Of a stretch of 64,000 nt of DNA, positions 8,072 to 30,978 are shown one piece after another. The stretch spans positions 175 through 64,174 of the forward strand of contig CANQWK010000006.1 in the NCBI GenBank assembly GCA_947627545.1, given 5' to 3'. The DNA comes from an uncultured Clostridia bacterium. GTDB lineage: Bacteria; Bacillota; Clostridia; Christensenellales; UBA1242. A program made the translations under genes and the position numbers. Numbering within the stretch: position 1 is the first letter of the stretch; each line of letters begins with the position of its first letter. The notes below the pieces were generated by a model that did not search any database, was not told where the DNA came from, and worked only from the letters and a program-made list of their open reading frames with translations.

Positions 8072-8737
8072 TTATCTTGAATTGGTGGATTGTGGGCTAA
8101 CTGCGGTTGGATATAGTGGCAAATCAAACACTCCTGGGCATACATCGTTATTAGCATAAGGTGTGCATGGCGGAATTGGGCAATATCCATAACTTGGTAC
8201 AAGCACATCTACCACTGCTACAACCTTTAAAATAGATGTAACGCAAGCATTAATAGAAAAGCCGCCTGTGGTTGGGTTAAACGAGCCAGACGAAATAACT
8301 GCACTGCCAAAAGCAATTACATCAATAGGCGTTAGCGATGGCTGAGGTACATATAAAATAACATCTTGAACAAGAGTTATTGTGCCAGTTGCGGTACCTG
8401 CAACGTTATTAGCATCGGTGTATGTAACAACAACAGGAATGTTCACATTTGCTTGAACACGAGCAAAATTTGGTCTATCTTCAAACCTTGTAACAACTAA
8501 ATTTGAAACAGTTGCATTGCCTCCAACCGAATTTCCGCTTACAAAATTAAGTGGAAGAGCAGGGTTTGCAGGGTTAAAATTAGTTAATGATAGTTGATAA
8601 TCTTCAATTTGAGATTGGTTCATGCAAGCATCAAAAACTTTTGTGGTTTGAATGCAAATTCTTTCACAAAGCCCATTTAAAGCGTTGTTTGTTTGGCCAG
8701 GGAAAATGCCTGGTCTTGCGTCAGTATAAAATGACAT
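8072..8737 (-). CDS. Conserved hypothetical Cys/Pro-rich beta-protein, possibly spore coat or exosporium
   Basis: ERICIQTTKVFDAC motif, C-terminal PSYGYCPIPPC; AGGAGG SD; no signal peptide. Confidence 0.55.
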   Translation of the reverse strand: MSFYTDARPGIFPGQTNNALNGLCERICIQTTKVFDACMNQSQIEDYQLSLTNFNPANPALPLNFVSGNSVGGNATVSNLVVTRFEDRPNFARVQANVNIPVVVTYTDANNVAGTATGTITLVQDVILYVPQPSLTPIDVIAFGSAVISSGSFNPTTGGFSINACVTSILKVVAVVDVLVPSYGYCPIPPCTPYANNDVCPGVFDLPLYPTAVSPQSTNSR

Positions 8738-21288: not shown

Positions 21289-22395
21289 GTGCTAAACATA
21301 AAGTACATTTTAGATGTTGGCTCTTCCTGCTTACGCTTGCTGGCGGTATCAAAGTTCATGGGCAGAAATCAAATAGTGGCGGAAGAAGAGGTTTTGTATG
21401 ACGGTTATATGGACGGCGAATTTTTATCTGCCGAAAACCTAACAGCCAATTTAGATGAATTAATAAACAAAATGTCCAACAAAATGCGGAAACCAATAAA
21501 AGCGGTTGTGGTTGGCGTGCCAAGTGAGTTTTGCGTGTGCGTTTGCAAACGAATATCACGCAAGTTTAATGTTTCTCACAAAATAACGGATTTTGACGTT
21601 AAAGATTTGTTTGAAACCAACAAAAGTTTTGGAGATAGCCAAACCTATTCGGTAATAAATTACAGCCCAATGCAGTTTGTTTTAGATGACGATGTAAAAA
21701 CCTTAACACCAATAGGCATGCGTTCGTCAAATTTGGTGCTAGACGCAAGTTACATATTGGCAAAACGAACATTTATAAACTTATTTTTAGAAGAATTTGC
21801 CAAACTTAACATATTTGAAATAGATTTTATATGCACCGCACTAGGCCAAGCCTTAAGTTGCGAACAAGCCAAGGAAAAAGTAAAGCCCTTTGCCGTTGTA
21901 GATGTAGGCCATATATCAACAAGCGTGTGCGTGCTAAAAGGGGAAGGGCTAGCACTGTTAAGTTCGTTTTCAATGGGCGGCGGACATATTTCAAACGATT
22001 TAATGCAAATTTTAAACCTAAATTTTAAAGACGCCGAACTAATAAAACGCAAAGTAATTTTAACGGTGGAAAGCAGCAAAAATGAAAGTTACGAGGTTTG
22101 CTCAAAAGGTAATTTAATTAAAGCGCCAATTAACATGACAAACCAAATAGTAAAAAGCCGAATAGAAATAATAGCAAAAGTTATAGGCGAAATTTTATCA
22201 ATAGACCAAGCGTTTAAAGATATAACCATATATTTAACAGGCGACGGAATATCACACTTTAAAGGAGTGAAAAACATTATAAAGAATGTAACAGGGCTAG
22301 ACGTAATAGAGTTTTCAATTCCGTTTGACAATTCAAAAGGCCGCTATCAAACATCAAAAATAGGTCTAACCACACTGGCGGAAATAGTTGTGTAA
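21289..22395 (+). CDS. ftsA: Cell division protein FtsA (divergent, short C-terminus)
   Basis: LDVGSS, VVDVG, MGGGHISNDL, LTGDG; GTG start; directly upstream of ftsZ. Confidence 0.85.
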   Translation: MLNIKYILDVGSSCLRLLAVSKFMGRNQIVAEEEVLYDGYMDGEFLSAENLTANLDELINKMSNKMRKPIKAVVVGVPSEFCVCVCKRISRKFNVSHKITDFDVKDLFETNKSFGDSQTYSVINYSPMQFVLDDDVKTLTPIGMRSSNLVLDASYILAKRTFINLFLEEFAKLNIFEIDFICTALGQALSCEQAKEKVKPFAVVDVGHISTSVCVLKGEGLALLSSFSMGGGHISNDLMQILNLNFKDAELIKRKVILTVESSKNESYEVCSKGNLIKAPINMTNQIVKSRIEIIAKVIGEILSIDQAFKDITIYLTGDGISHFKGVKNIIKNVTGLDVIEFSIPFDNSKGRYQTSKIGLTTLAEIVV

Positions 22396-22583: not shown

Positions 22584-23774
22584 ATGAATAATTATGACTT
22601 ATCTTCAAATATCTGCAACATTAAAGTTGTTGGCGTGGGTGGTGGCGGAAACAACGCAATCAACCGCATGGTAGCCTCAGGTGTTAAAGGTGCATATTTC
22701 GTGGCTGTAAACACCGATATGCAGGACTTAAAAATGTCTAACGCCGATGAGGTTATTCAAATAGGCGCAAAACTTACGCGCGGTTTAGGTGCAGGCTCTA
22801 ACCCTGAAATAGGCAAAGCCGCAGCGGAAGAAAGTAAAGAAGAATTAACCAAAATGCTTCAAAACACCGACTTATTGTTCATAACCACCGGCTTAGGCGG
22901 CGGCACAGGCAACGGCGCAGCCCCTGTAATAGCCAAACTAGCCAAAGAGATGGGCATTTTAACCATAGGCGTAGTAACCAAACCCTTTAAATTTGAAGGC
23001 CCTAAACGTGCTGCCAACGCCGAACAGGGCATAAGGGAAATGAAACAGTATGTAGATTCCCTTGTGGTTATTCCTAATGAAAAACTATACACCATCTTTA
23101 ACAAAGAGGTTTCTTTTGTAGATGCGTTTAGATATGCCGATGATGTTTTGCATCAAGCCATTCAAGGCCTAAGCGAACTAATTTCTGTTCCTGGCCTTAT
23201 TAACCTAGATTTTGCCGATGTATCTACCATAATGCGAGATAAAGGCATAGCACACATGGGCATAGGCAAGGGCAGAGGTGCAAACAAAACAATAGAGGCA
23301 GTTCGCCAAGCCGTAACCAGCCAATTGCTAGAAACCAGCATAGAAGGTGCAACGGGCATTTTAATTAACATAACTGGCGGAAGAGATTTAACTTTAAGCG
23401 AAGTTTATGAGGCAGTTGATTTAGTTAGAGATGTAGCAGACAAAAACTGCAATATCATTTTTGGTGCAAAAATAAATAATGACACTAACGGCGAAACTGA
23501 AATCACCGTAATAGCCACCGGCTTTGATAAGGACTCTAAAAAAGTGGAAGAAACCGCCAATTTTAGCGATAACCGAGCCAACTATAAACCATTTGTAAAT
23601 TATCATCCAATAGAAGAACAACAACCACAGCCAGCCAACCAATCACAAACCACAGCACAAACCAACCCTCAACCTGAGCCAAAGGACAAAGTTGAAGATA
23701 TATCTCTATCAGCCAACCGCCCAATAATAGACGATGACGATTTACCACCATTCTTGCGCAAACTAAGGAAATAA
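22584..23774 (+). CDS. ftsZ: Cell division protein FtsZ
   Basis: GVGGGGNNA, GGGTGNG, NLDFAD, C-terminal DLPPFLRK. Confidence 0.98.
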   Translation: MNNYDLSSNICNIKVVGVGGGGNNAINRMVASGVKGAYFVAVNTDMQDLKMSNADEVIQIGAKLTRGLGAGSNPEIGKAAAEESKEELTKMLQNTDLLFITTGLGGGTGNGAAPVIAKLAKEMGILTIGVVTKPFKFEGPKRAANAEQGIREMKQYVDSLVVIPNEKLYTIFNKEVSFVDAFRYADDVLHQAIQGLSELISVPGLINLDFADVSTIMRDKGIAHMGIGKGRGANKTIEAVRQAVTSQLLETSIEGATGILINITGGRDLTLSEVYEAVDLVRDVADKNCNIIFGAKINNDTNGETEITVIATGFDKDSKKVEETANFSDNRANYKPFVNYHPIEEQQPQPANQSQTTAQTNPQPEPKDKVEDISLSANRPIIDDDDLPPFLRKLRK

Positions 23775-23781
23775 TCATATT

Positions 23782-23854
23782 TGTCATACCGAGCGTAGTC
23801 GAGTGTATCTCCAACATGTCATACCGACCGAGCGTAGTGAGTGGAGTGTATCTC
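23782..23854 (+). repeat. REP-like palindrome cluster 1 (2 units)
   Basis: TGTCATACCGAGCGTAGTCGAGTGTATCTC (23782-23811) and TGTCATACCGACCGAGCGTAGTGAGTGGAGTGTATCTC (23817-23854). Confidence 0.9.
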
Positions 23855-23883
23855 GTATCTCATCTCATCTTAAAAGGAAACCA

Positions 23884-24168
23884 ATGAAAGATTATTATGT
23901 ATATATTTTAACAAACAAAACCAATTCCACATTATATGTTGGAGTAACTAATAATCTTATAAGGCGGGTAGAAGAGCATAAAAACGGAGTAGTAGAAGGC
24001 TTTACAAAAAGATATAATATACATAAATTAGTTTATTTTGAAATAACCAATGATATTGAAAGTGCAATAGAAAGAGAGAAAAAATTAAAATTATGGTCAA
24101 GAGAAAAGAAAAATCGATTAATATCATTAAATAACCCAACTTGGCAAGATTTAAGCAACAATTTTTAA
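23884..24168 (+). CDS. Small stand-alone GIY-YIG nuclease (94 aa)
   Basis: YYVYIL...LYVGVTNNLIRRVEEH...FTKRYNIHKLVYFE...AIEREKKLKLWSR; true start ATG 23884 after AAAGGA. The track start at 23803 reads through repeats. Confidence 0.92.
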   Translation: MKDYYVYILTNKTNSTLYVGVTNNLIRRVEEHKNGVVEGFTKRYNIHKLVYFEITNDIESAIEREKKLKLWSREKKNRLISLNNPTWQDLSNNF

Positions 24169-24183
24169 TTGTTGCTTTTTTTA

Positions 24184-24554
24184 TGTCATACATTAACCTG
24201 TCATACTGAGCCCCGTCATGTCATACCGAGCGAGTAAAACGAGTCGAGCGTATCTCCAATATGTCATACCGACCGAGCGTTAGCGAGTGGAGTGTATCTC
24301 CAATATGTCATACCGACCGAGCGTTAGCGAGTGGAGTGTATCTCATAATTAATCGAGTGTATCTCAATAGATTCACTCCATTCGTGCTTACGCACTCAGT
24401 CGGAATGACAAGGATAATATGTCATACCTTAACATGTCATACCGAGCGAGTGCAACGAGTCGAGTGTATCTCATTTATAACAAACCAACCCTCAAATGTC
24501 ATACCGACCGAGCGTTAGCGAGTGGAGTGTATCTCAAATTATCGAGCGTATCTC
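24184..24554. repeat. REP-like palindrome cluster 2 (6 full units plus fragments)
   Basis: Full units at 24219-24256, 24262-24300, 24306-24344, 24369-24410 (inverted), 24435-24472 and 24497-24535; fragments at 24184, 24199, 24353, 24420 and 24542. Confidence 0.92.
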
Positions 24555-24615
24555 AACCTAAAAAATAAATTTGCAAAAAATTCTACAAAAAAATTTAAAA
24601 ATCTTTAAAAATCGC

Positions 24616-24644
24616 TTGACTAATTTTTTTTTAATTTATAAAAT
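24616..24644 (+). promoter_or_regulatory. sigmaA promoter of the fibre-like operon
   Basis: TTGACT-17 bp-TAAAAT; predicts a leader of about 135-140 nt before ATG 24789 with an AGGAGG SD. Confidence 0.65.
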
Positions 24645-24788
24645 AAAAATGTATAAATGCAATGGGCAGGTATACATTTAAAAAGTTTGAACAAACTATA
24701 AATGTTAGGTCGGGGGAATGTTAGTTGAAGATACCTCAACTAATATGGAAGGTTAATTTTTAAAAAAATATAGGAGGAATTAAAAAAT

Positions 24789-25457
24789 ATGACCGCAAAA
24801 CAAAAAATGACTATTGCTATTACCGCTCTATGCTTAGTTGCAGTAATTGCAATCGTTACAGTAATTGCAGTTTTTGCTGCTACTACAGCAAAAATTAACT
24901 CTGCTGTTAATGTTAGTTATACTGCTACAGACGTTGTTGGTACTGCCTCTGCTAAATGGTACGGCGGCGCAGAAGACGCTGAATTAGCAGGTGAAAACAT
25001 GGATAACAATGGTTCTGAAGTAGATGGCGAAACAGTTCTAAATTTTGATGCTGATTCAGATTTATCTTCTCAAAGTGGAACATTATCTCCAGCTAAAGAC
25101 ATCACTTTTGATGCTAGCCACCAAGATGTTATTTTTGAATATAAATTCACTAACAGTGGTTCTCGTAGCTACAAAGCAACAGTTGTTTTCACTGGAACTA
25201 TTGAAAATGTAACTATTACTTCTAAAACTCAACCTACTACACCAATTACAGTTTCTAGTGGACATTCTACAATTACAGATGATGTAAGCCCTACTTCTCA
25301 AAGTCCTAGTGCTACATTCACAATTGCTAATGTTGCAGTTGCTGCTAACACTGGTGTAACTTATGTTTATGTTAAATTACACTTAACAAGCAAAGCTAAA
25401 GATGCTACATTCTCTGGTACTTTTGCTTGGACATTAACTGCTGACGCTAAAGCTTAG
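24789..25457 (+). CDS. Secreted TasA/pilin-like beta-protein, probable major subunit
   Basis: Basic N-region, long hydrophobic H-region ending AVFA/A, Thr/Ser/Ala/Val-rich mature part, C-terminal YVYVK...FSGTFAWTL; codon usage typical of high expression (TAC, AAC, TTC, GCT, ACT). Confidence 0.7.
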   Translation: MTAKQKMTIAITALCLVAVIAIVTVIAVFAATTAKINSAVNVSYTATDVVGTASAKWYGGAEDAELAGENMDNNGSEVDGETVLNFDADSDLSSQSGTLSPAKDITFDASHQDVIFEYKFTNSGSRSYKATVVFTGTIENVTITSKTQPTTPITVSSGHSTITDDVSPTSQSPSATFTIANVAVAANTGVTYVYVKLHLTSKAKDATFSGTFAWTLTADAKA

Positions 25458-25477
25458 TATTAAAAATTAATTATTTT

Positions 25478-25520
25478 AAAACTCCATATTATTTTAGGTA
25501 TCAAAATCGTATGGAGTTTT
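25478..25520 (+). terminator. Hairpin terminator/attenuator after the major subunit gene
   Basis: AAAACTCCATA...TATGGAGTTTT with inner ATTTT/AAAAT pairing. Confidence 0.7.
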
Positions 25521-25541
25521 AATTTTAATTAATGCTTTTTA

Positions 25542-25700
25542 GAGATACACTCCACTCGTGCTTACGCACTCGGTCGGTATGACAACGTAATGGAGATACA
25601 CTCCACTCGTGCTTACGCACTCGGTCGGTATGACGGGGTAAGTCGGTATGACAGGGAATCTCAACCTATTATGTCATTCTGAGTGTAGTCGAAGAATCTC
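25542..25700. repeat. REP-like palindrome cluster 3 (3 full units plus fragment)
   Basis: Inverted units at 25542-25584 and 25593-25635 (GAGATACACTCCACTCGTGCTTACGCACTCGGTCGGTATGAC); fragment at 25642-25653; direct unit TGTCATTCTGAGTGTAGTCGAAGAATCTC at 25672-25700. Confidence 0.92.
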
Positions 25701-25738
25701 ATCCTTATTTAAAAAAAATATTCTTTCGGAGAATAATT

Positions 25739-26347
25739 ATGACAACTAAAACTAAATTAACACTTTCAATTACAACCATTTGTTTGCTTGCTATAATTTC
25801 GGTTGTGGCTGTTGTGGCGGTTTTTGCTGCTACTGCTCAAGATTTTAGCAGTAACATTATTGTTAATTTTGAATGTAATAATGTTGATGGTAGTGTTAAA
25901 GCCAATTATTATGTTGGAGACGAAACTAACAGTTTTGCCATGCTTTCTTCTTCTGGTAGCGAAACTATAAACTTTAATTCTGAACAATTTAAGCCTGAAG
26001 CAGAATTAACTCTTGCTCCTATTAAGGACATTGATGTTAATGGCGAACGATTTGTTGTTATTGAATTTATTTTTACAAATTTGGCAGATGTTAATTACAC
26101 AGCCAATTTGTCTTTTGTGGGCGAGGCTAATAATGTTACAATTATTGTTCCTAACAAACACTCACAAATTTCTAATTTTGATGCTATTGTAACCGAAGCA
26201 CAACCAAATTCTTCTACTTTTGCACATAATGTTGAAGTTAATAAAAATTCAACATGCTATGTGTATGTTAAAGTTTCTATTAGCAAACCAAATGAGGGTG
26301 CTTCATTTTCTGGCAACTTTAATTGGGTTTTAAACGGAGAAATTTAA
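25739..26347 (+). CDS. Secreted TasA/pilin-like paralogue 2
   Basis: Signal ends AVFA/A; shares VxG, EFxFTN, YxAxxxFxG, YVYVK and FSGNFNWVL with the first gene. Confidence 0.7.
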   Translation: MTTKTKLTLSITTICLLAIISVVAVVAVFAATAQDFSSNIIVNFECNNVDGSVKANYYVGDETNSFAMLSSSGSETINFNSEQFKPEAELTLAPIKDIDVNGERFVVIEFIFTNLADVNYTANLSFVGEANNVTIIVPNKHSQISNFDAIVTEAQPNSSTFAHNVEVNKNSTCYVYVKVSISKPNEGASFSGNFNWVLNGEI

Positions 26348-26351
26348 TTTA

Positions 26352-26963
26352 ATGACTAAGAAAAAGAAAATTATTGTTTCAATAATTTCGGTTATTGCTG
26401 TTATATGCGTTTTAGCAATTTCTGTTATTGTTATTTACGCGGCTTCACAGCATGATTTTTCTAGTGCTATTAAAGTTTCGTTTGATGCTCAAGGCGTTGA
26501 CGGTGCAGTATCGGCTAAAATTTATTTAGGTGGCTCCGACACTAAGGGCAGCAGTTTTACTAGCGATGGCACAACTAGTGGTAAAAAAGTTCTAACTTTT
26601 AAAAAGGACCAATTTACAAGTTTAATTTTAAAGCCTACTCAAGAGTTTAGTTTGCAAAAACCTAACACTTTTGTTGTTTTTGAATATGAATTTGATTGCA
26701 GCACCATTATGCAAGGTGGTTACACTGCTACTATGGAATTCTATGGCATTGCAGATAACATTAAAGTTACAACTTTAAACAGTGCTTCTCACACCACTAA
26801 TTACGGCTCTATTACTTCAACTGTGTCCGACCCTACTAATTTTACTGTATCGGCAAACATTCCGCAGGGTAGAAAATACTTTGTGTACATAAAAGCCGCT
26901 ATTATTGACGATAGCATAGATGCTAATTTTTCAGCAAATTTCAGTTGGAAATTAAAGGTTTAG
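26352..26963 (+). CDS. Secreted TasA/pilin-like paralogue 3
   Basis: Signal ends VIYA/A; DFSSAIKVSF, VDG, VVFEYEF, FVYIK, FSANFSWKL. Confidence 0.7.
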   Translation: MTKKKKIIVSIISVIAVICVLAISVIVIYAASQHDFSSAIKVSFDAQGVDGAVSAKIYLGGSDTKGSSFTSDGTTSGKKVLTFKKDQFTSLILKPTQEFSLQKPNTFVVFEYEFDCSTIMQGGYTATMEFYGIADNIKVTTLNSASHTTNYGSITSTVSDPTNFTVSANIPQGRKYFVYIKAAIIDDSIDANFSANFSWKLKV

Positions 26964-27015
26964 CCATTTTATTTGTTAACATTTAGTTAACGCATTATTA
27001 AAATTCAGGGGTAAT

Positions 27016-27633
27016 ATGTCAAAAACTAAAAAGGTAACACCTTCCATTCAAGACACTGAAAAGGCGTATAAAGAGGGTTTAGAAGATAACTTAAGGAAAA
27101 GAAAACGCAAGCGTATAATATTGCGTATTGTTTTGCTTATGTTAATTTTGTTATTAGTTCTAGTTATTATTCTTGCTTTATCTTTAACAAGTTGCACAAA
27201 GGTAGAAAAAGAATTGGCTCTTGATATGTCCGTTTCTTCTTATGGGGTGGAAAACGGCCACGCCGAGCAACTGGGTAATACAAAAAAATATCGCTACGAG
27301 CGTGGCACCGAAACCGATGGAGTACAAAACATAGAATATCCTCCATTTAATTTAGATGTTGGCGTATATTTCCGCCTAGATTACAAAATTCATAATTTAA
27401 GTGAAATTACATATTCTTATGTTATAGATTTAACTAAACTAGAAATTTTTAACTGTGAAGTTACCTATTTTACAAATTTAACCGATGAAGAAGAAGTGTT
27501 CCCTGAAAGCAATATTTTAAGGTTGGCACATAATAAAGATTTTGAATTTTCTATTGTTATTAAAGTTAAAGATTATGATATTTCAACTGCTAATTGTAAA
27601 GGCGTTATTTCTTTCACAATAGAAATTATGTAA
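27016..27633 (+). CDS. Membrane-anchored, possibly lipoprotein, distant paralogue
   Basis: Charged N-terminus, RKRKRKR followed by a long TM ending LSLTSC; C-terminal beta pattern (LDYKIHN, YSYVID, FSIVIKV, KGVISFTI) resembles the paralogues. Confidence 0.55.
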   Translation: MSKTKKVTPSIQDTEKAYKEGLEDNLRKRKRKRIILRIVLLMLILLLVLVIILALSLTSCTKVEKELALDMSVSSYGVENGHAEQLGNTKKYRYERGTETDGVQNIEYPPFNLDVGVYFRLDYKIHNLSEITYSYVIDLTKLEIFNCEVTYFTNLTDEEEVFPESNILRLAHNKDFEFSIVIKVKDYDISTANCKGVISFTIEIM

Positions 27634-27641
27634 GGTGAAAA

Positions 27642-29207
27642 GTGAACAGCAATGGAGTTAACATAAATGTTGTTGAAAATGATAGTGTAAACCACTACAT
27701 GAAAGTAGCGGCTAAACTTTCTAAAAAATACAACAAAAAACGTAACATAAATGAATTGTTCTTAAAGCCAAAATCTCCTTTAAGAAGGGTTGTTTCATAC
27801 ATTTTAAACACTCTAAGCATTATTGTTTTTTGCTTCTGCTTATTGTTCTGCTTTAGTGCGGTGTATAATCGTGTGCAAAACATGCCACCTTCCATTGCTG
27901 GCTATTTCTGCATGCGGGTTAGTTCTGGCAGCATGGTAAACAGTGGCTTTGATAAGGGCGATGGCGTTATTGTTCGTTCGGTAGATGTTAAAACTCTTAA
28001 AGAGGGCGACATTATTGCTTTTTATAGCGATAGCACTTACATTAACGGCATTGATTATAACCTTACAAAAGTTTCATCTAACGACATTCCTAAAACTAAA
28101 TATTCGCTAACTTTAAAAAAGTTTTTTGGCATTCAGTCTAAAAAAGTTAAAACGGTTGCAAGCCGTAACCAAATGTTAGTGTTCCATCATATTAGAGAAG
28201 TTTATCAAGACGCCTCAGGCAAAAGATATTTTAAAACTTATGGCTCGTCTAACCTAAAAGATAAGCAAGGGGAGGTTGAGGACGATAACATTATTTTTGA
28301 TACAAACCTTGTTCAAGAAGACTTAGTTATTGGCATTTACAACAACAGCAAAACCGCTAAAACTATTGCATCTGTATTAAATGTTGTTTCAACTCCTTTT
28401 GGCATGCTTGTTGCTTTGTCTGTGCCTGTAATTATTTTAATTATATCTTTGCTATTAAACTCATTTAGAAATGTTCAATTGGCATTTTTGGAAAATGATG
28501 TTGTTGAAGAAAAACGCAAACTTACCGATGAAATTTGTGTTAAAAATGAAATTGGTTATAGAATGAGCACCAAAACCAAATATAAAGTGCTTGCTCAGGC
28601 ACCTGAAGATAAAAAACTTGAATATATCAATTTGTTGTGGAAAACCGACAATCGACCACAGAATATTCGCAAATATTATTTAAGAAAAAGCATAATTTTA
28701 AGGCCAATGCAAAAATTGCGTGATGTAAACCGCCAGTGTGAACAAATGTTTAAAGATAATGTTGACCCTAAGAAAATTGCAAAATTTTATATGGAAGAAA
28801 AAGCAAAAATTCAAGAAGAAGAAAAACGCTATAACAAAATGTTGAGAGATATTAGCCAAAAATCTAAACTTGAAAATAAAACTACTGCATTAGAGAACGG
28901 CACGGCAATTTTAAAACCTAAAACTGCAAATACAAAACAAGTAAAGGGTAAAGCGGACAGCACAAACACAGTTGTTAAAGCAAAAACAAATGCAAAACCT
29001 AAAACATCGGCAGCAAAGCAAAGTGCTAAATTGCCTACAAATAAAACTGATAAAAACAATGCTAGTGCAACAAAAACCAGCACAAAGCAAGTAAGTAACA
29101 GCAAAAAAACAACAGCTGCTAACAAAAAGGCAACAACCAACACAAAGGCAAACACTAACACAAATACAACAAATTCAAAAAAAACTGCCAAAAAATCTAG
29201 TAAATAA
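27642..29207 (+). CDS. SipW-type (S26, ER/archaeal-like) signal peptidase I fused to a C-terminal extension
   Basis: TM, then RVSSGSM, KGDGVIV, EGDIIAF, VFHHI, FKTYGSSN; second TM, helical domain and Lys/Thr/Ala/Asn-rich tail; GTG start. Confidence 0.8.
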   Translation: MNSNGVNINVVENDSVNHYMKVAAKLSKKYNKKRNINELFLKPKSPLRRVVSYILNTLSIIVFCFCLLFCFSAVYNRVQNMPPSIAGYFCMRVSSGSMVNSGFDKGDGVIVRSVDVKTLKEGDIIAFYSDSTYINGIDYNLTKVSSNDIPKTKYSLTLKKFFGIQSKKVKTVASRNQMLVFHHIREVYQDASGKRYFKTYGSSNLKDKQGEVEDDNIIFDTNLVQEDLVIGIYNNSKTAKTIASVLNVVSTPFGMLVALSVPVIILIISLLLNSFRNVQLAFLENDVVEEKRKLTDEICVKNEIGYRMSTKTKYKVLAQAPEDKKLEYINLLWKTDNRPQNIRKYYLRKSIILRPMQKLRDVNRQCEQMFKDNVDPKKIAKFYMEEKAKIQEEEKRYNKMLRDISQKSKLENKTTALENGTAILKPKTANTKQVKGKADSTNTVVKAKTNAKPKTSAAKQSAKLPTNKTDKNNASATKTSTKQVSNSKKTTAANKKATTNTKANTNTNTTNSKKTAKKSSK

Positions 29208-29220
29208 AACAAAATAACAA

Positions 29221-29247
29221 AAAATGGAAGGGCAAACCTTCCATTTT
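29221..29247. terminator. Bidirectional intrinsic terminator
   Basis: AAAATGGAAGG-GCAAA-CCTTCCATTTT. Confidence 0.85.
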
Positions 29248-29274
29248 TTATATTAAAAACCTTTAAGTTTTTTG

Positions 29275-29443
29275 TTATTTCAAATGCTTTTTCATAAAAT
29301 TTACTCTCGTTTCACTTCGAGTAATTTATTTCACTTTTCATAAAATTTACTCTCGTTTCACTTCGAGTAATTTATTTCACTTTTCATAAAATTTACTCTC
29401 GTTTCACTTCGAGTAAAAAATTATTTCAAATGCTTTTTCATAA
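29275..29443. repeat. 46-bp-period tandem array of a 24-nt hairpin, flanked by a duplicated 23-bp gene end
   Basis: TTACTCTCGTTTCACTTCGAGTAA at 29301, 29347 and 29393; TTATTTCAAATGCTTTTTCATAA at 29275-29297 and 29421-29443. Confidence 0.9.
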
Positions 29444-30227
29444 TTTTTTCGAACAATGCAACTGCAAAATACATCAATGCCGCCAACACGCACAATATTA
29501 CCGTCGCTGTCATTACTAAGTGCATGTTTGCTACTTGTTTTCCATAAGTCAATAAATACCCTAAACCAGCCTTGCTTACTAACATTTCGCCCATTATTGA
29601 GCCTATAAAACTTAGCCCAACGTTCACTTTTAGTGTCGATATTATATCTTTTAACGAATGTGGCAAAACTAGTTTGAAAAATATTTGATTTTTGCTAGCC
29701 CCTAGGCTTCTGCCTAGCGATATCAGTTGATTGTCGCAGCTTGTAAATGAATTTAATGTGTTTAATATTGTTACTATTATAACTATTAATATACACATAA
29801 ATATTATAGCTTTATCGCCCGCACCAAACCATATTATGATTATTGGCCCTAAGGCAATTTTTGGCAGCGAATTTAACACAACTAAATACGGCTCGCTTAC
29901 TCGCCTTAAAAAGTTGCTATACCACAACACATACGCCACCAAAAAGCCTACGCCTGTTGCTATTGCAAATCCAATAAGTGTTTCGTTTAAAGTTATTTTT
30001 GTGTGATAAAATAATTCTCCACTTTTATATAGTTCGCCAATTGTTTTTGCAATGCGTGAAGGACTTGAAAAGAAGAATGAACTTATAATTTCGTGTTTTG
30101 ATAGAAGTTCCCATCCTAACAAGAACACTACTAGCATTGCAATTTGAGTTATTAGCACTAGTGCTTTTATTGTTCTATGCTTTTTTAAATAGTCATAATG
30201 AGCTTTGCTAAATTTTTGATTTTTCAT
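29421..30227 (-). CDS. NitT/TauT-family ABC transporter permease
   Basis: FFFSSPSRI, NSLPKIALGPII and EAA-like loop; start likely ATG 30227, overlapping the ATPase end. Confidence 0.88.
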   Translation of the reverse strand: MKNQKFSKAHYDYLKKHRTIKALVLITQIAMLVVFLLGWELLSKHEIISSFFFSSPSRIAKTIGELYKSGELFYHTKITLNETLIGFAIATGVGFLVAYVLWYSNFLRRVSEPYLVVLNSLPKIALGPIIIIWFGAGDKAIIFMCILIVIIVTILNTLNSFTSCDNQLISLGRSLGASKNQIFFKLVLPHSLKDIISTLKVNVGLSFIGSIMGEMLVSKAGLGYLLTYGKQVANMHLVMTATVILCVLAALMYFAVALFEKIMKKHLK

Positions 30228-30978
30228 CTTGAATTTCCTGCCATATAGTGCTAAATAACTTTTTAGCTTTGCTTGAATTTCTTCGCTCAAATGGGGTAAG
30301 GGTTTTGTCAAAATCCAAATTATGAACCGATTTTATTTCTGCTGGACGCTTTGTTAAAACTATTATTTTATCCGACATGCTTATTGCTTCTTGAATATCA
30401 TGCGTTACCAAAATTGCCGTTTTGTTTTCGCCTTTTATTATGTTAAATATATCATCGCACAAATTAAGCCGTGTTTGATAGTCTAATGCACTAAAAGGCT
30501 CGTCAAGTAATAGCAATTCAGGCTTTAATGCAAGCGTTCTTATTAAAGCAACTCGCTGCCGCATGCCACCGCTTAGTTCATTTGGATATTTCTTTAAGAA
30601 ATCCTTTATTCCATATTTTTCTGCTAATTTTATTGCGTATTCTTTTTTCTCTTTGGTAAGTTGTTTCTTTATTTCTAAACCAAGAAAAATGTTTTTTTCT
30701 ATGTTTCGCCAAGGTAATAAATTGTCTCGTTGAAACATGTATCCGCACAGATTTTCTTTAGGGCTAGGTTTTTTATTGGCAACAACAACTTTCCCTGTTG
30801 TGGGCTTAATTAAACCCGCAATTAGCGATAGTATTGTTGTTTTGCCGCAACCAGATGGCCCTACAATTGAAACAAATTCTTGCTGTTCAATTTTAAAATT
30901 GACATTATTTATTGCAGATGTTTCATCTTTTATGCTTTGATAGTTTAAACTTAAATTTTCAACTTCAACAATGCTCAT
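30208..30978 (-). CDS. NitT/TauT-family ABC transporter ATPase
   Basis: GPSGCGKT, LSGGMRQR, LLLDEPF, VTHD. Confidence 0.93.
   Translation of the reverse strand: MSIVEVENLSLNYQSIKDETSAINNVNFKIEQQEFVSIVGPSGCGKTTILSLIAGLIKPTTGKVVVANKKPSPKENLCGYMFQRDNLLPWRNIEKNIFLGLEIKKQLTKEKKEYAIKLAEKYGIKDFLKKYPNELSGGMRQRVALIRTLALKPELLLLDEPFSALDYQTRLNLCDDIFNIIKGENKTAILVTHDIQEAISMSDKIIVLTKRPAEIKSVHNLDFDKTLTPFERRNSSKAKKLFSTIWQEIQDEKSKI

Follow-up and report, generated by a model that had tools for sequence, protein, structure and literature searches.

Why should a minimal nuclease gene, lying directly behind a cell-division gene, be embedded in a dense family of short repeats? This question was raised by a locus in the tiny genome of an uncultured gut Clostridia bacterium (1.10 Mb, 30% G+C, 20 contigs, 94% complete). 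The window analysed here is a 64-kb stretch, positions 175–64174 of contig C6 (CANQWK010000006.1), in which a GIY-YIG nuclease gene, here called ssn, follows ftsZ. An earlier note on this DNA had proposed that gene and repeats form a repeat-propagation system laid out like repetitive extragenic palindromes (REPs) and REP-associated tyrosine transposases (RAYTs). We consider it likely that the gene at 23884–24168 encodes a nuclease of the Ssn family and that the repeats surrounding it are its cognate, Ssn-related hairpin motifs. The proposed propagation system is not a discovery, since the Ssn/hairpin system was described in 2025. New here are a variant, G·A-type hairpin and a new host lineage for the Ssn system.

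The nuclease and its repeats

Ssn proteins have been described as single-domain GIY-YIG proteins (CDD cd10448) that bind, exclusively in single-stranded form, a tagged hairpin repeat called NTS or, as the broader term, SRM (Chenal et al., Nat Commun 2025; PMC11893778). SsnA of N. meningitidis has 94 amino acids, and Ssn homologues cleave single-stranded DNA upstream of the hairpin but neither duplex DNA nor RNA (PMC11893778). SRM-type repeats were reported in the flanks of 71% of Ssn homologues (PMC11893778).

The ssn gene of the window was the single tblastn match in the whole genome. The only domain detected in its 94-aa product in a Pfam scan was PF01541 (residues 4–76, E 6.5e-17); no NCBIfam model matched it above cut-off. 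The earlier note had described a minimal GIY-YIG gene, devoid of extra domains and beginning 110 nucleotides (nt) past the ftsZ stop, and this description proved accurate. Homologues were present in 12 of 41 Neisseria-genus genomes (46–55% identity, E 1e-21 to 1e-27), but none was found in two Neisseria genomes (N. lactamica and N. mucosa). Via these Neisseria-genus homologues, among which N. meningitidis SsnA itself was not singled out, the window protein falls within the published homology criterion (tblastn E < 1e-10 against Neisseria SsnA; PMC11893778). It aligned with them over 90 amino acids without gaps and retained the tyrosines of the GIY and YIG motifs (Y6, Y18), R27/28, H32 and the glutamate of the RE.K motif. 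Several of the Neisseria-genus homologues were flanked by exact NTS repeats, with six copies within 1.5 kb at one locus (L244), and two additional NTS-flanked genes encoded proteins with 49–54% identity to the window protein. The closest solved structure, UPF0213 BH0048, was much more remote (E 1.4e-6). Judged by its sequence, the window protein is a member of the Ssn family.

The repeats have a conserved head and tail. The head TGTCATWCYGA occurred 12 times in the window (0.04 expected), always within 23782–25682, and the tail GTGTATCTC occurred 10 times (0.69 expected), nine of them at the locus. Altogether, 11 full units of 29–43 nt and eight head-only or tail-only fragments were identified (Table 1); the earlier note had counted at least 11 and six, respectively, and had placed them on both sides of the gene, as we found. 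They occupy the three intergenic gaps ftsZ–ssn, ssn–orf222 and orf222–orf202, with two full units upstream and nine downstream of ssn. Eight of the 11 are on the forward strand, while B4, C1 and C2 are on the reverse strand. Head-to-tail runs with 5-nt CAAYA spacers prevail, and there is one tail-to-tail pair. The 44-nt tandem period (24218–24344, 2.9 copies) and the 51-nt spacing from C1 to C2 (25542 to 25593) had both been noticed correctly. A block duplication (24182–24300 with 24418–24535) is superimposed on the runs; one 39-mer is present in three copies with 100% identity, and a single base distinguishes two 43-mers. These tandem and block duplications adjoin ssn. At 25642–25662, where a head-only and a tail-only fragment touch, the junction GTCGGTATGACA/GGGAATCTC may be a scar left by recombination or by a template switch from one unit to another.

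In the whole genome, about 15 full units were found, or about 23 copies with fragments included. Approximately 85% of the copies lie within the 1.9-kb locus, which makes up 0.17% of the genome, and only approximately four lie elsewhere, at two small sites (C3:1122 and C19:~8230–8300). With a structure-aware pattern, ten distinct units were recovered at the locus and a further one at C3:1122; a reversed-genome control yielded none. The unit at C3:1122–1164 is situated between a NADAR-like gene and a gene for a collagen-like surface protein with Gly-X-Y repeats, which it precedes. The cluster at C19:8230–8300 is between the gene of a 449-aa protein and a small Smr-like gene.

Independent assemblies of four other samples yielded contigs with 0–1 mismatches and no indels relative to the window wherever they overlapped it. 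One of the four covers the complete ssn–orf222 array and is identical, so the array is not an assembly artefact; the other three match over the parts they cover. A CRISPR array was ruled out by the variable unit length, the presence of units on both strands and the lack of spacers. Coding repeats were likewise ruled out, the 85-aa open reading frame (ORF) at 24261–24518 being repeats read through.

Table 1. Features of the locus and its borders, in window coordinates.
Feature	Position	Strand	Remarks
ftsA	21289–22395		
ftsZ	22584–23774	+	conserved; left border of the insert; PF00091 (E 8e-51), PF12327 (E 5e-30)
species-specific insert	23775–29420		5.6 kb; ssn and repeats, four small secreted-protein genes, 521-aa gene
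repeat unit A1	23782–23811	+	30 nt; short type, one G·A tandem
repeat unit A2	23817–23854	+	38 nt; followed by tail fragments GTATCTC/ATCTC at 23855–23870
ssn	23884–24168	+	94-aa single-domain GIY-YIG nuclease, Ssn family; ATG at 23884, stop at 24168
terminator-like hairpin and T run	24153–24184	+	overlaps the ssn stop codon
two head-only fragments	24184–24215	+	TGTCATAC at 24184–24191; TGTCATACTGAGCCCCG at 24199–24215
repeat unit B1	24219–24256	+	38 nt
repeat unit B2	24262–24300	+	39 nt; same sequence as B3 and B6
repeat unit B3	24306–24344	+	39 nt; tandem with B2; tail-only fragment at 24354–24365
repeat unit B4	24368–24410	-	43 nt; ATTC type; tail-to-tail with B3
head-only fragment	24420–24431	+	
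repeat unit B5	24435–24472	+	38 nt
repeat unit B6	24497–24535	+	39 nt
tail-only fragment	24543–24554	+	
promoter-like site for orf222	24616–24644	+	TTGACT-17-TAAAAT
orf222	24789–25457	+	222 aa; membrane or signal segment at the N-terminus; first of three paralogous secreted proteins; flanked by repeat clusters on both sides
repeat unit C1	25542–25584	-	43 nt
repeat unit C2	25593–25635	-	43 nt; head CGTCAT
head-only fragment	25642–25653	-	touches the following fragment
tail-only fragment	25654–25662	+	
repeat unit C3	25672–25700	+	29 nt; short ATTCT type
ABC-transporter permease gene	29421–30311	-	convergent

Association with the nuclease family and hairpin fold

The earlier note had proposed to test two associations, an enrichment of the repeats beside homologous nuclease genes and a co-variation of repeat type with the nuclease phylogeny, and both were borne out. 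In a comparison set of 80 homologous genes from at least 13 phyla, YGTCAT heads occurred approximately once per locus per 100 nt beside the gene, compared with approximately 0.1 farther off. The heads were approximately 10-fold enriched within 200 nt, mostly on the plus strand upstream and on the minus strand downstream, and the homologues usually sat within an outward-facing inverted pair of repeats. Up to 300 nt from the gene, units of the G·A type had a density of 1.67 per kb, compared with 0.05 per kb beyond; they were 32 times denser beside it. A unit fitting the published degenerate SRM pattern was found near 18 of the homologues, one fitting the G·A-type pattern near 28 and either near 45.

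Each homologue locus was labelled according to whether or not its repeats had the design of a head followed by the G·A tandem, and the labels were mapped on a maximum-likelihood tree of 81 proteins. Hairpin type changed six times on this tree, compared with 18–32 times (mean 25) in 300 label shuffles. One split, with a support of 90 in the Shimodaira–Hasegawa-like approximate likelihood ratio test (SH-aLRT), held the window and every other one of the 38 G·A loci, but no more than 5 of the 36 loci without the G·A design; proteins from the genus Neisseria and those flanked by NTS fell on its opposite side from the window protein. The label is partly confounded with host taxonomy (Bacillota mostly G·A, Pseudomonadota mostly not); despite this, the G·A clade covers at least 13 phyla. 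These results support the conclusion that the ssn gene and the repeats belong together.

The repeats could not be recognized as hairpins by thermodynamics. Folded with standard nearest-neighbour DNA parameters, single units were no better than shuffled sequences (z +1.1 to -1.4); meningococcal NTS reached -9 kcal/mol (z -5.5) in the same test. The single units are therefore not Watson–Crick palindromes, and their earlier description as REP-like palindromes could not be upheld. Since Watson–Crick folding of single units gave no signal, the evidence for the hairpin is covariation, together with the assumption that the G·A pairs are of the sheared type. In 152 distinct units, collected from the loci examined with a pattern that placed no constraint on the stem, stem pairs 3–5 were 97% Watson–Crick. 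Pair 3 occurred in all four types (T-A 75, C-G 35, A-T 27, G-C 10), and the stem was closed by an invariant 5'-GA/5'-GA tandem. This covariation settles that the units form hairpins. Tandem G·A pairs are stable in DNA in a pyrimidine-GA-purine context, and we infer that they form in the window units.

With our own scoring scheme, which permits G·A pairs, one fold accommodated all 11 window units. It starts with an unpaired 4-nt tag, TGTC (CGTC once), followed by five Watson–Crick pairs (ATACC or ATTCY), which in all 11 units begin with A-T and then T-A, and by the tandem G·A. Two further pairs and a T bulge on the 3' arm follow, with a second tandem G·A in the long units. Two to four pairs, a loop of 3–4 nt and an unpaired 3-nt tail, CTC or CTA, complete the unit. 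For the inverted pair B3 and B4 (24306–24344 and 24368–24410) a long hairpin was predicted (-24.4 kcal/mol, z -5.3), as the earlier note had supposed, albeit an imperfect one.

No Y1 transposase (PF01797) was found in the 94%-complete genome with a search that was positive in 6 of 14 control genomes, which agrees with the earlier proposal that the system is independent of RAYTs. Taken together, the similarity of the protein, the heads near its homologues, the density of structured units and the lack of a RAYT place the locus in the Ssn/SRM system. Several points weigh against this assignment. The published SRM pattern had no matches in the window or in the whole genome, and standard parameters do not predict single units to fold. 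Among the enzymes of the G·A subclade no tested one was found, and the Neisseria-genus and NTS-flanked homologues lie across the main split. Some same-genus genomes carry 4–32 units yet no detectable ssn. Finally, a genome-wide role like that of meningococcal NTS is unlikely, because only approximately four copies lie off the locus.

By analogy with the tested homologues, the window protein would need the DNA strand to be single-stranded in order to bind a folded unit, a state that might arise on the lagging-strand template, in incoming transforming or conjugative DNA or during repair. Cleavage would follow, a few nucleotides to the 5' side of the tag. Its role may be the control of motif-bearing single-stranded DNA, as in meningococcal transformation, or else selfish maintenance. 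The genome encodes ComEC and DprA, so that uptake of single-stranded DNA is at least possible. The earlier note had the nuclease nick at or near the folded repeats. Cutting beside a folded repeat has been demonstrated experimentally for homologues (PMC11893778), but the characterised Ssn enzymes cut single-stranded DNA only and are therefore not duplex nickases.

The acquired insert, the genus and possible mobility

The sequence between ftsZ and the convergent ATP-binding cassette (ABC) transporter permease gene was regarded as a species-specific insert because in relatives ftsZ adjoins this permease gene almost directly. ftsZ was found in 26/26 same-genus genomes. In seven same-genus genomes, the ORF after ftsZ was a homologue of the gene at 29421–30311, at a distance of 30–250 nt, and none of the insert's proteins was found at this ftsZ–permease site.

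Besides ssn, the insert encodes orf222, orf202 and orf203, three paralogues of 200–222 amino acids, each with a membrane or signal segment at its N-terminus, as well as a 205-aa protein (orf205) and one of 521 amino acids whose tail is rich in Lys, Thr and Asn. For these five proteins, no Pfam or NCBIfam family matched above cut-off. The B repeats are located between the terminator-like hairpin of ssn and the promoter-like site of orf222, and from these predicted signals the B cluster is probably untranscribed. This position fits a role at the level of DNA.

Two further repeats were seen near the borders of the insert. In the part of ftsZ encoding the C-terminal linker (23623–23664), a 12-nt repeat, AACCACAGCACA, is present in 3.4 copies and encodes a Gln/Pro/Thr-rich stretch. 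At the right edge (29289–29416), a perfect 46-nt tandem repeat, TTTTCATAAAATTTACTCTCGTTTCACTTCGAGTAATTTATTTCAC, with 2.8 copies and 100% identity, ends 5 nt before the stop of the permease gene; it has no TGTCAT head, and each copy contains a TTACTC...GAGTAA inverted repeat. Two further loci of the genus, L211 (G021:C6) and L212 (G007:C2), have different, unrelated inserts of approximately 2.7 kb between ftsZ and the permease gene; the stretch between these two genes seems to be a hot spot for gene acquisition.

Within the genus, ssn is present in only 2 genomes out of about 27, at a different locus in each, and was absent from 24 same-genus genomes searched. The second copy, in genome G043 of a sister species (contig of locus L001), encodes a protein with 77% identity and lies inside an inverted repeat pair. 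Under a strict definition, 18 genomes had no units, five had 1–5, the window genome had 10, G043 had 20 and G025 had 32. In G025, which is 76% complete, the strict units are spread across at least 25 contigs and no ssn homologue was detected; either the quarter of the genome that is missing contains ssn or the units persist without the gene. Orthologous intergenic gaps hold unit clusters in G043 and are short and empty in the window genome. The G043 clusters (L225 700–915, L231 470–790, L232 550–790) mix several TGTCAT-headed families, and some of these repeats have long Watson–Crick inner hairpins, e.g., TGTCATTGCGAGGCAACTTGACCATCAAGTTGGCGTGGCAATCTC.

This distribution bears on a more far-reaching proposal, which Chenal et al. 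raise as well (PMC11893778) and which would add a function to the Ssn reading: that the nuclease generates or moves the copies, preferentially near its own gene, as a RAYT does with REPs and REPINs. The G·A branch of Ssn and its tagged hairpins would then be a mobile pair with an autonomous and a non-autonomous partner, a hydrolytic counterpart of RAYT/REPIN, recently active in this genus of gut Clostridia with tiny genomes. The patchy occurrence of ssn, the range of unit counts and the gaps filled in G043 and empty in the window genome favour this idea, as does the lack of an alternative candidate of the Y1 transposase type. So do the placement of homologues between outward-facing inverted repeats, which resembles an insertion sequence, and the identical copies with tandem and block duplications; identical head-to-tail copies beside the nuclease gene would point to a preference for copying in cis. 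Slippage or unequal recombination, however, explains the tandem and block duplications equally well. Hydrolytic GIY-YIG single-strand nucleases are not known to have any transposition chemistry or joining activity. The independent assemblies from four other samples are identical to the array wherever they overlap it, only one of them spanning the ssn–orf222 gap, and the off-locus copies are few. Comparisons of filled and empty gaps (flanks approximately 75–80% identical) revealed no target-site signature, and that of the G043 cassette site with the window genome is confounded by rearrangement, its flanks being rearranged and one flanking gene missing in the window genome. We regard mobility as rather unlikely. 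The spread or turnover driven by the nuclease that the earlier note had envisaged is a hypothesis; the genome-wide count of the repeats that it had suggested gave a strong concentration at the locus.

Two other explanations detach the nuclease from the repeats. In one, ssn would be a free-standing GIY-YIG homing endonuclease and the repeats unrelated terminators or stabilisers of mRNA. The location of the gene within a horizontally acquired insert and a weak match to TIGR01453, a group I intron endonuclease model (24 bits, below the cut-off of 56), would be compatible with this, yet the gene stands free between ftsZ and orf222 and comes with no DNA-binding domain, intron or intein. The association with TGTCAT units moreover recurs over the 80 homologues and follows the nuclease tree, and the B repeats, found on both strands and devoid of T runs, are not part of the predicted transcripts. 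We consider this explanation very improbable. Still less probable is the other, in which the repeats act as RNA, be it a structured leader, small RNA or attenuator, for surface-protein genes and the nuclease is a bystander. Repeat clusters do precede orf222 and orf202, and the single unit at C3:1122 precedes the collagen-like gene, but an Rfam scan of 23000–26500 at E up to 5 returned only chance-level matches, both orientations occur within one gap and the promoter predicted for orf222 has the B cluster on its upstream side. With their tandem G·A design and unpaired tag, the units agree with the DNA motifs of the Ssn family, and N. meningitidis SsnA neither bound nor cut RNA (PMC11893778). 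Assignment to the Ssn family with its cognate hairpins thus remains the preferred reading.

Comparison with published Ssn, REP and RAYT systems

The chief value of the finding is negative, in that the system is already known. The window repeats are a form of the CGTC-tagged REPs, whose description includes TGTC among the variants of the tag (Di Nocera, De Gregorio, Rocco 2013, BMC Genomics 14:522; PMC3733652), and the system as such has been published as Ssn/SRM. The likeness of the NTS-ssnA-NTS layout to insertion sequences (IS200) and to REP/RAYT was already drawn in the discussion of the Ssn paper (PMC11893778). A search of the papers available found no follow-up paper on Ssn mobility or G·A-type motifs. 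The SRM pattern and Watson–Crick folding both miss the G·A hairpins, which occur at 28 of the 80 closest homologue loci, so that surveys relying on the two undercount the family. Since no tested enzyme was found in the G·A branch, this branch may offer new specificities for single-stranded DNA of the kind sought for biotechnology. The genus provides a compact natural comparison for asking whether Ssn drives repeat spread: some of its genomes have the gene and others lack it, unit counts range from 0 to more than 32, and both filled and empty sites occur.

With Ssn/NTS, the locus shares a 94-aa single-domain GIY-YIG protein, approximately 50% identical to the NTS-flanked homologues of the genus Neisseria, and oriented repeats on both sides of the gene with a YGTCAT head, a stem starting with A-T and T-A, and an ATC-containing tail. 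No transposase is involved in either, and the repeats also surround the gene of a neighbouring surface or secreted protein, here orf222; in meningococci, NTS clusters surround surface-protein genes (PMC11893778). The stems differ, in that NTS have a perfect stem of 8–9 bp and the window units have one or two tandem G·A and T bulges, and no window unit matches the published SRM pattern. The window copies are mostly arranged in short head-to-tail arrays rather than in the typical inverted, heads-out brackets. Meningococci have hundreds of NTS, far exceeding the copies counted in the window genome. The host is a reduced-genome Clostridia bacterium, and its nuclease belongs to a separate subclade from the NTS-flanked homologues.

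The CGTC-tagged REPs resemble the window units in their unpaired 4-nt tag, first stem pairs A-T and T-A, short loop and unpaired 3-nt tail, and they too lack a dedicated transposase (PMC3733652). Their continuous Watson–Crick stem of 8–9 bp with a loop of 4–5 nt (PMC3733652) is not matched by the window stems, which consist of five Watson–Crick pairs, a GA tandem, two Watson–Crick pairs, a GA tandem and two to four Watson–Crick pairs, with T bulges. Tails are CCA-like in the CGTC-tagged REPs and CTC in the window units. Their dimers are mostly head-to-head, head-to-tail ones being negligible, in contrast to the head-to-tail arrangement that dominates in the window. They have been reported from five phyla, Firmicutes not among them (PMC3733652).

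Compared with REP/REPIN-RAYT, the window enzyme differs in fold and chemistry, being a hydrolytic GIY-YIG nuclease rather than a tyrosine HUH (Y1) enzyme, and the tag is TGTC instead of GTAG. Mobility has been demonstrated for RAYT/REPIN, unlike for Ssn. Common to both are short tagged hairpin repeats around a single small nuclease gene, inverted dimers that can form long hairpins and, presumably, the recognition of single-stranded DNA.

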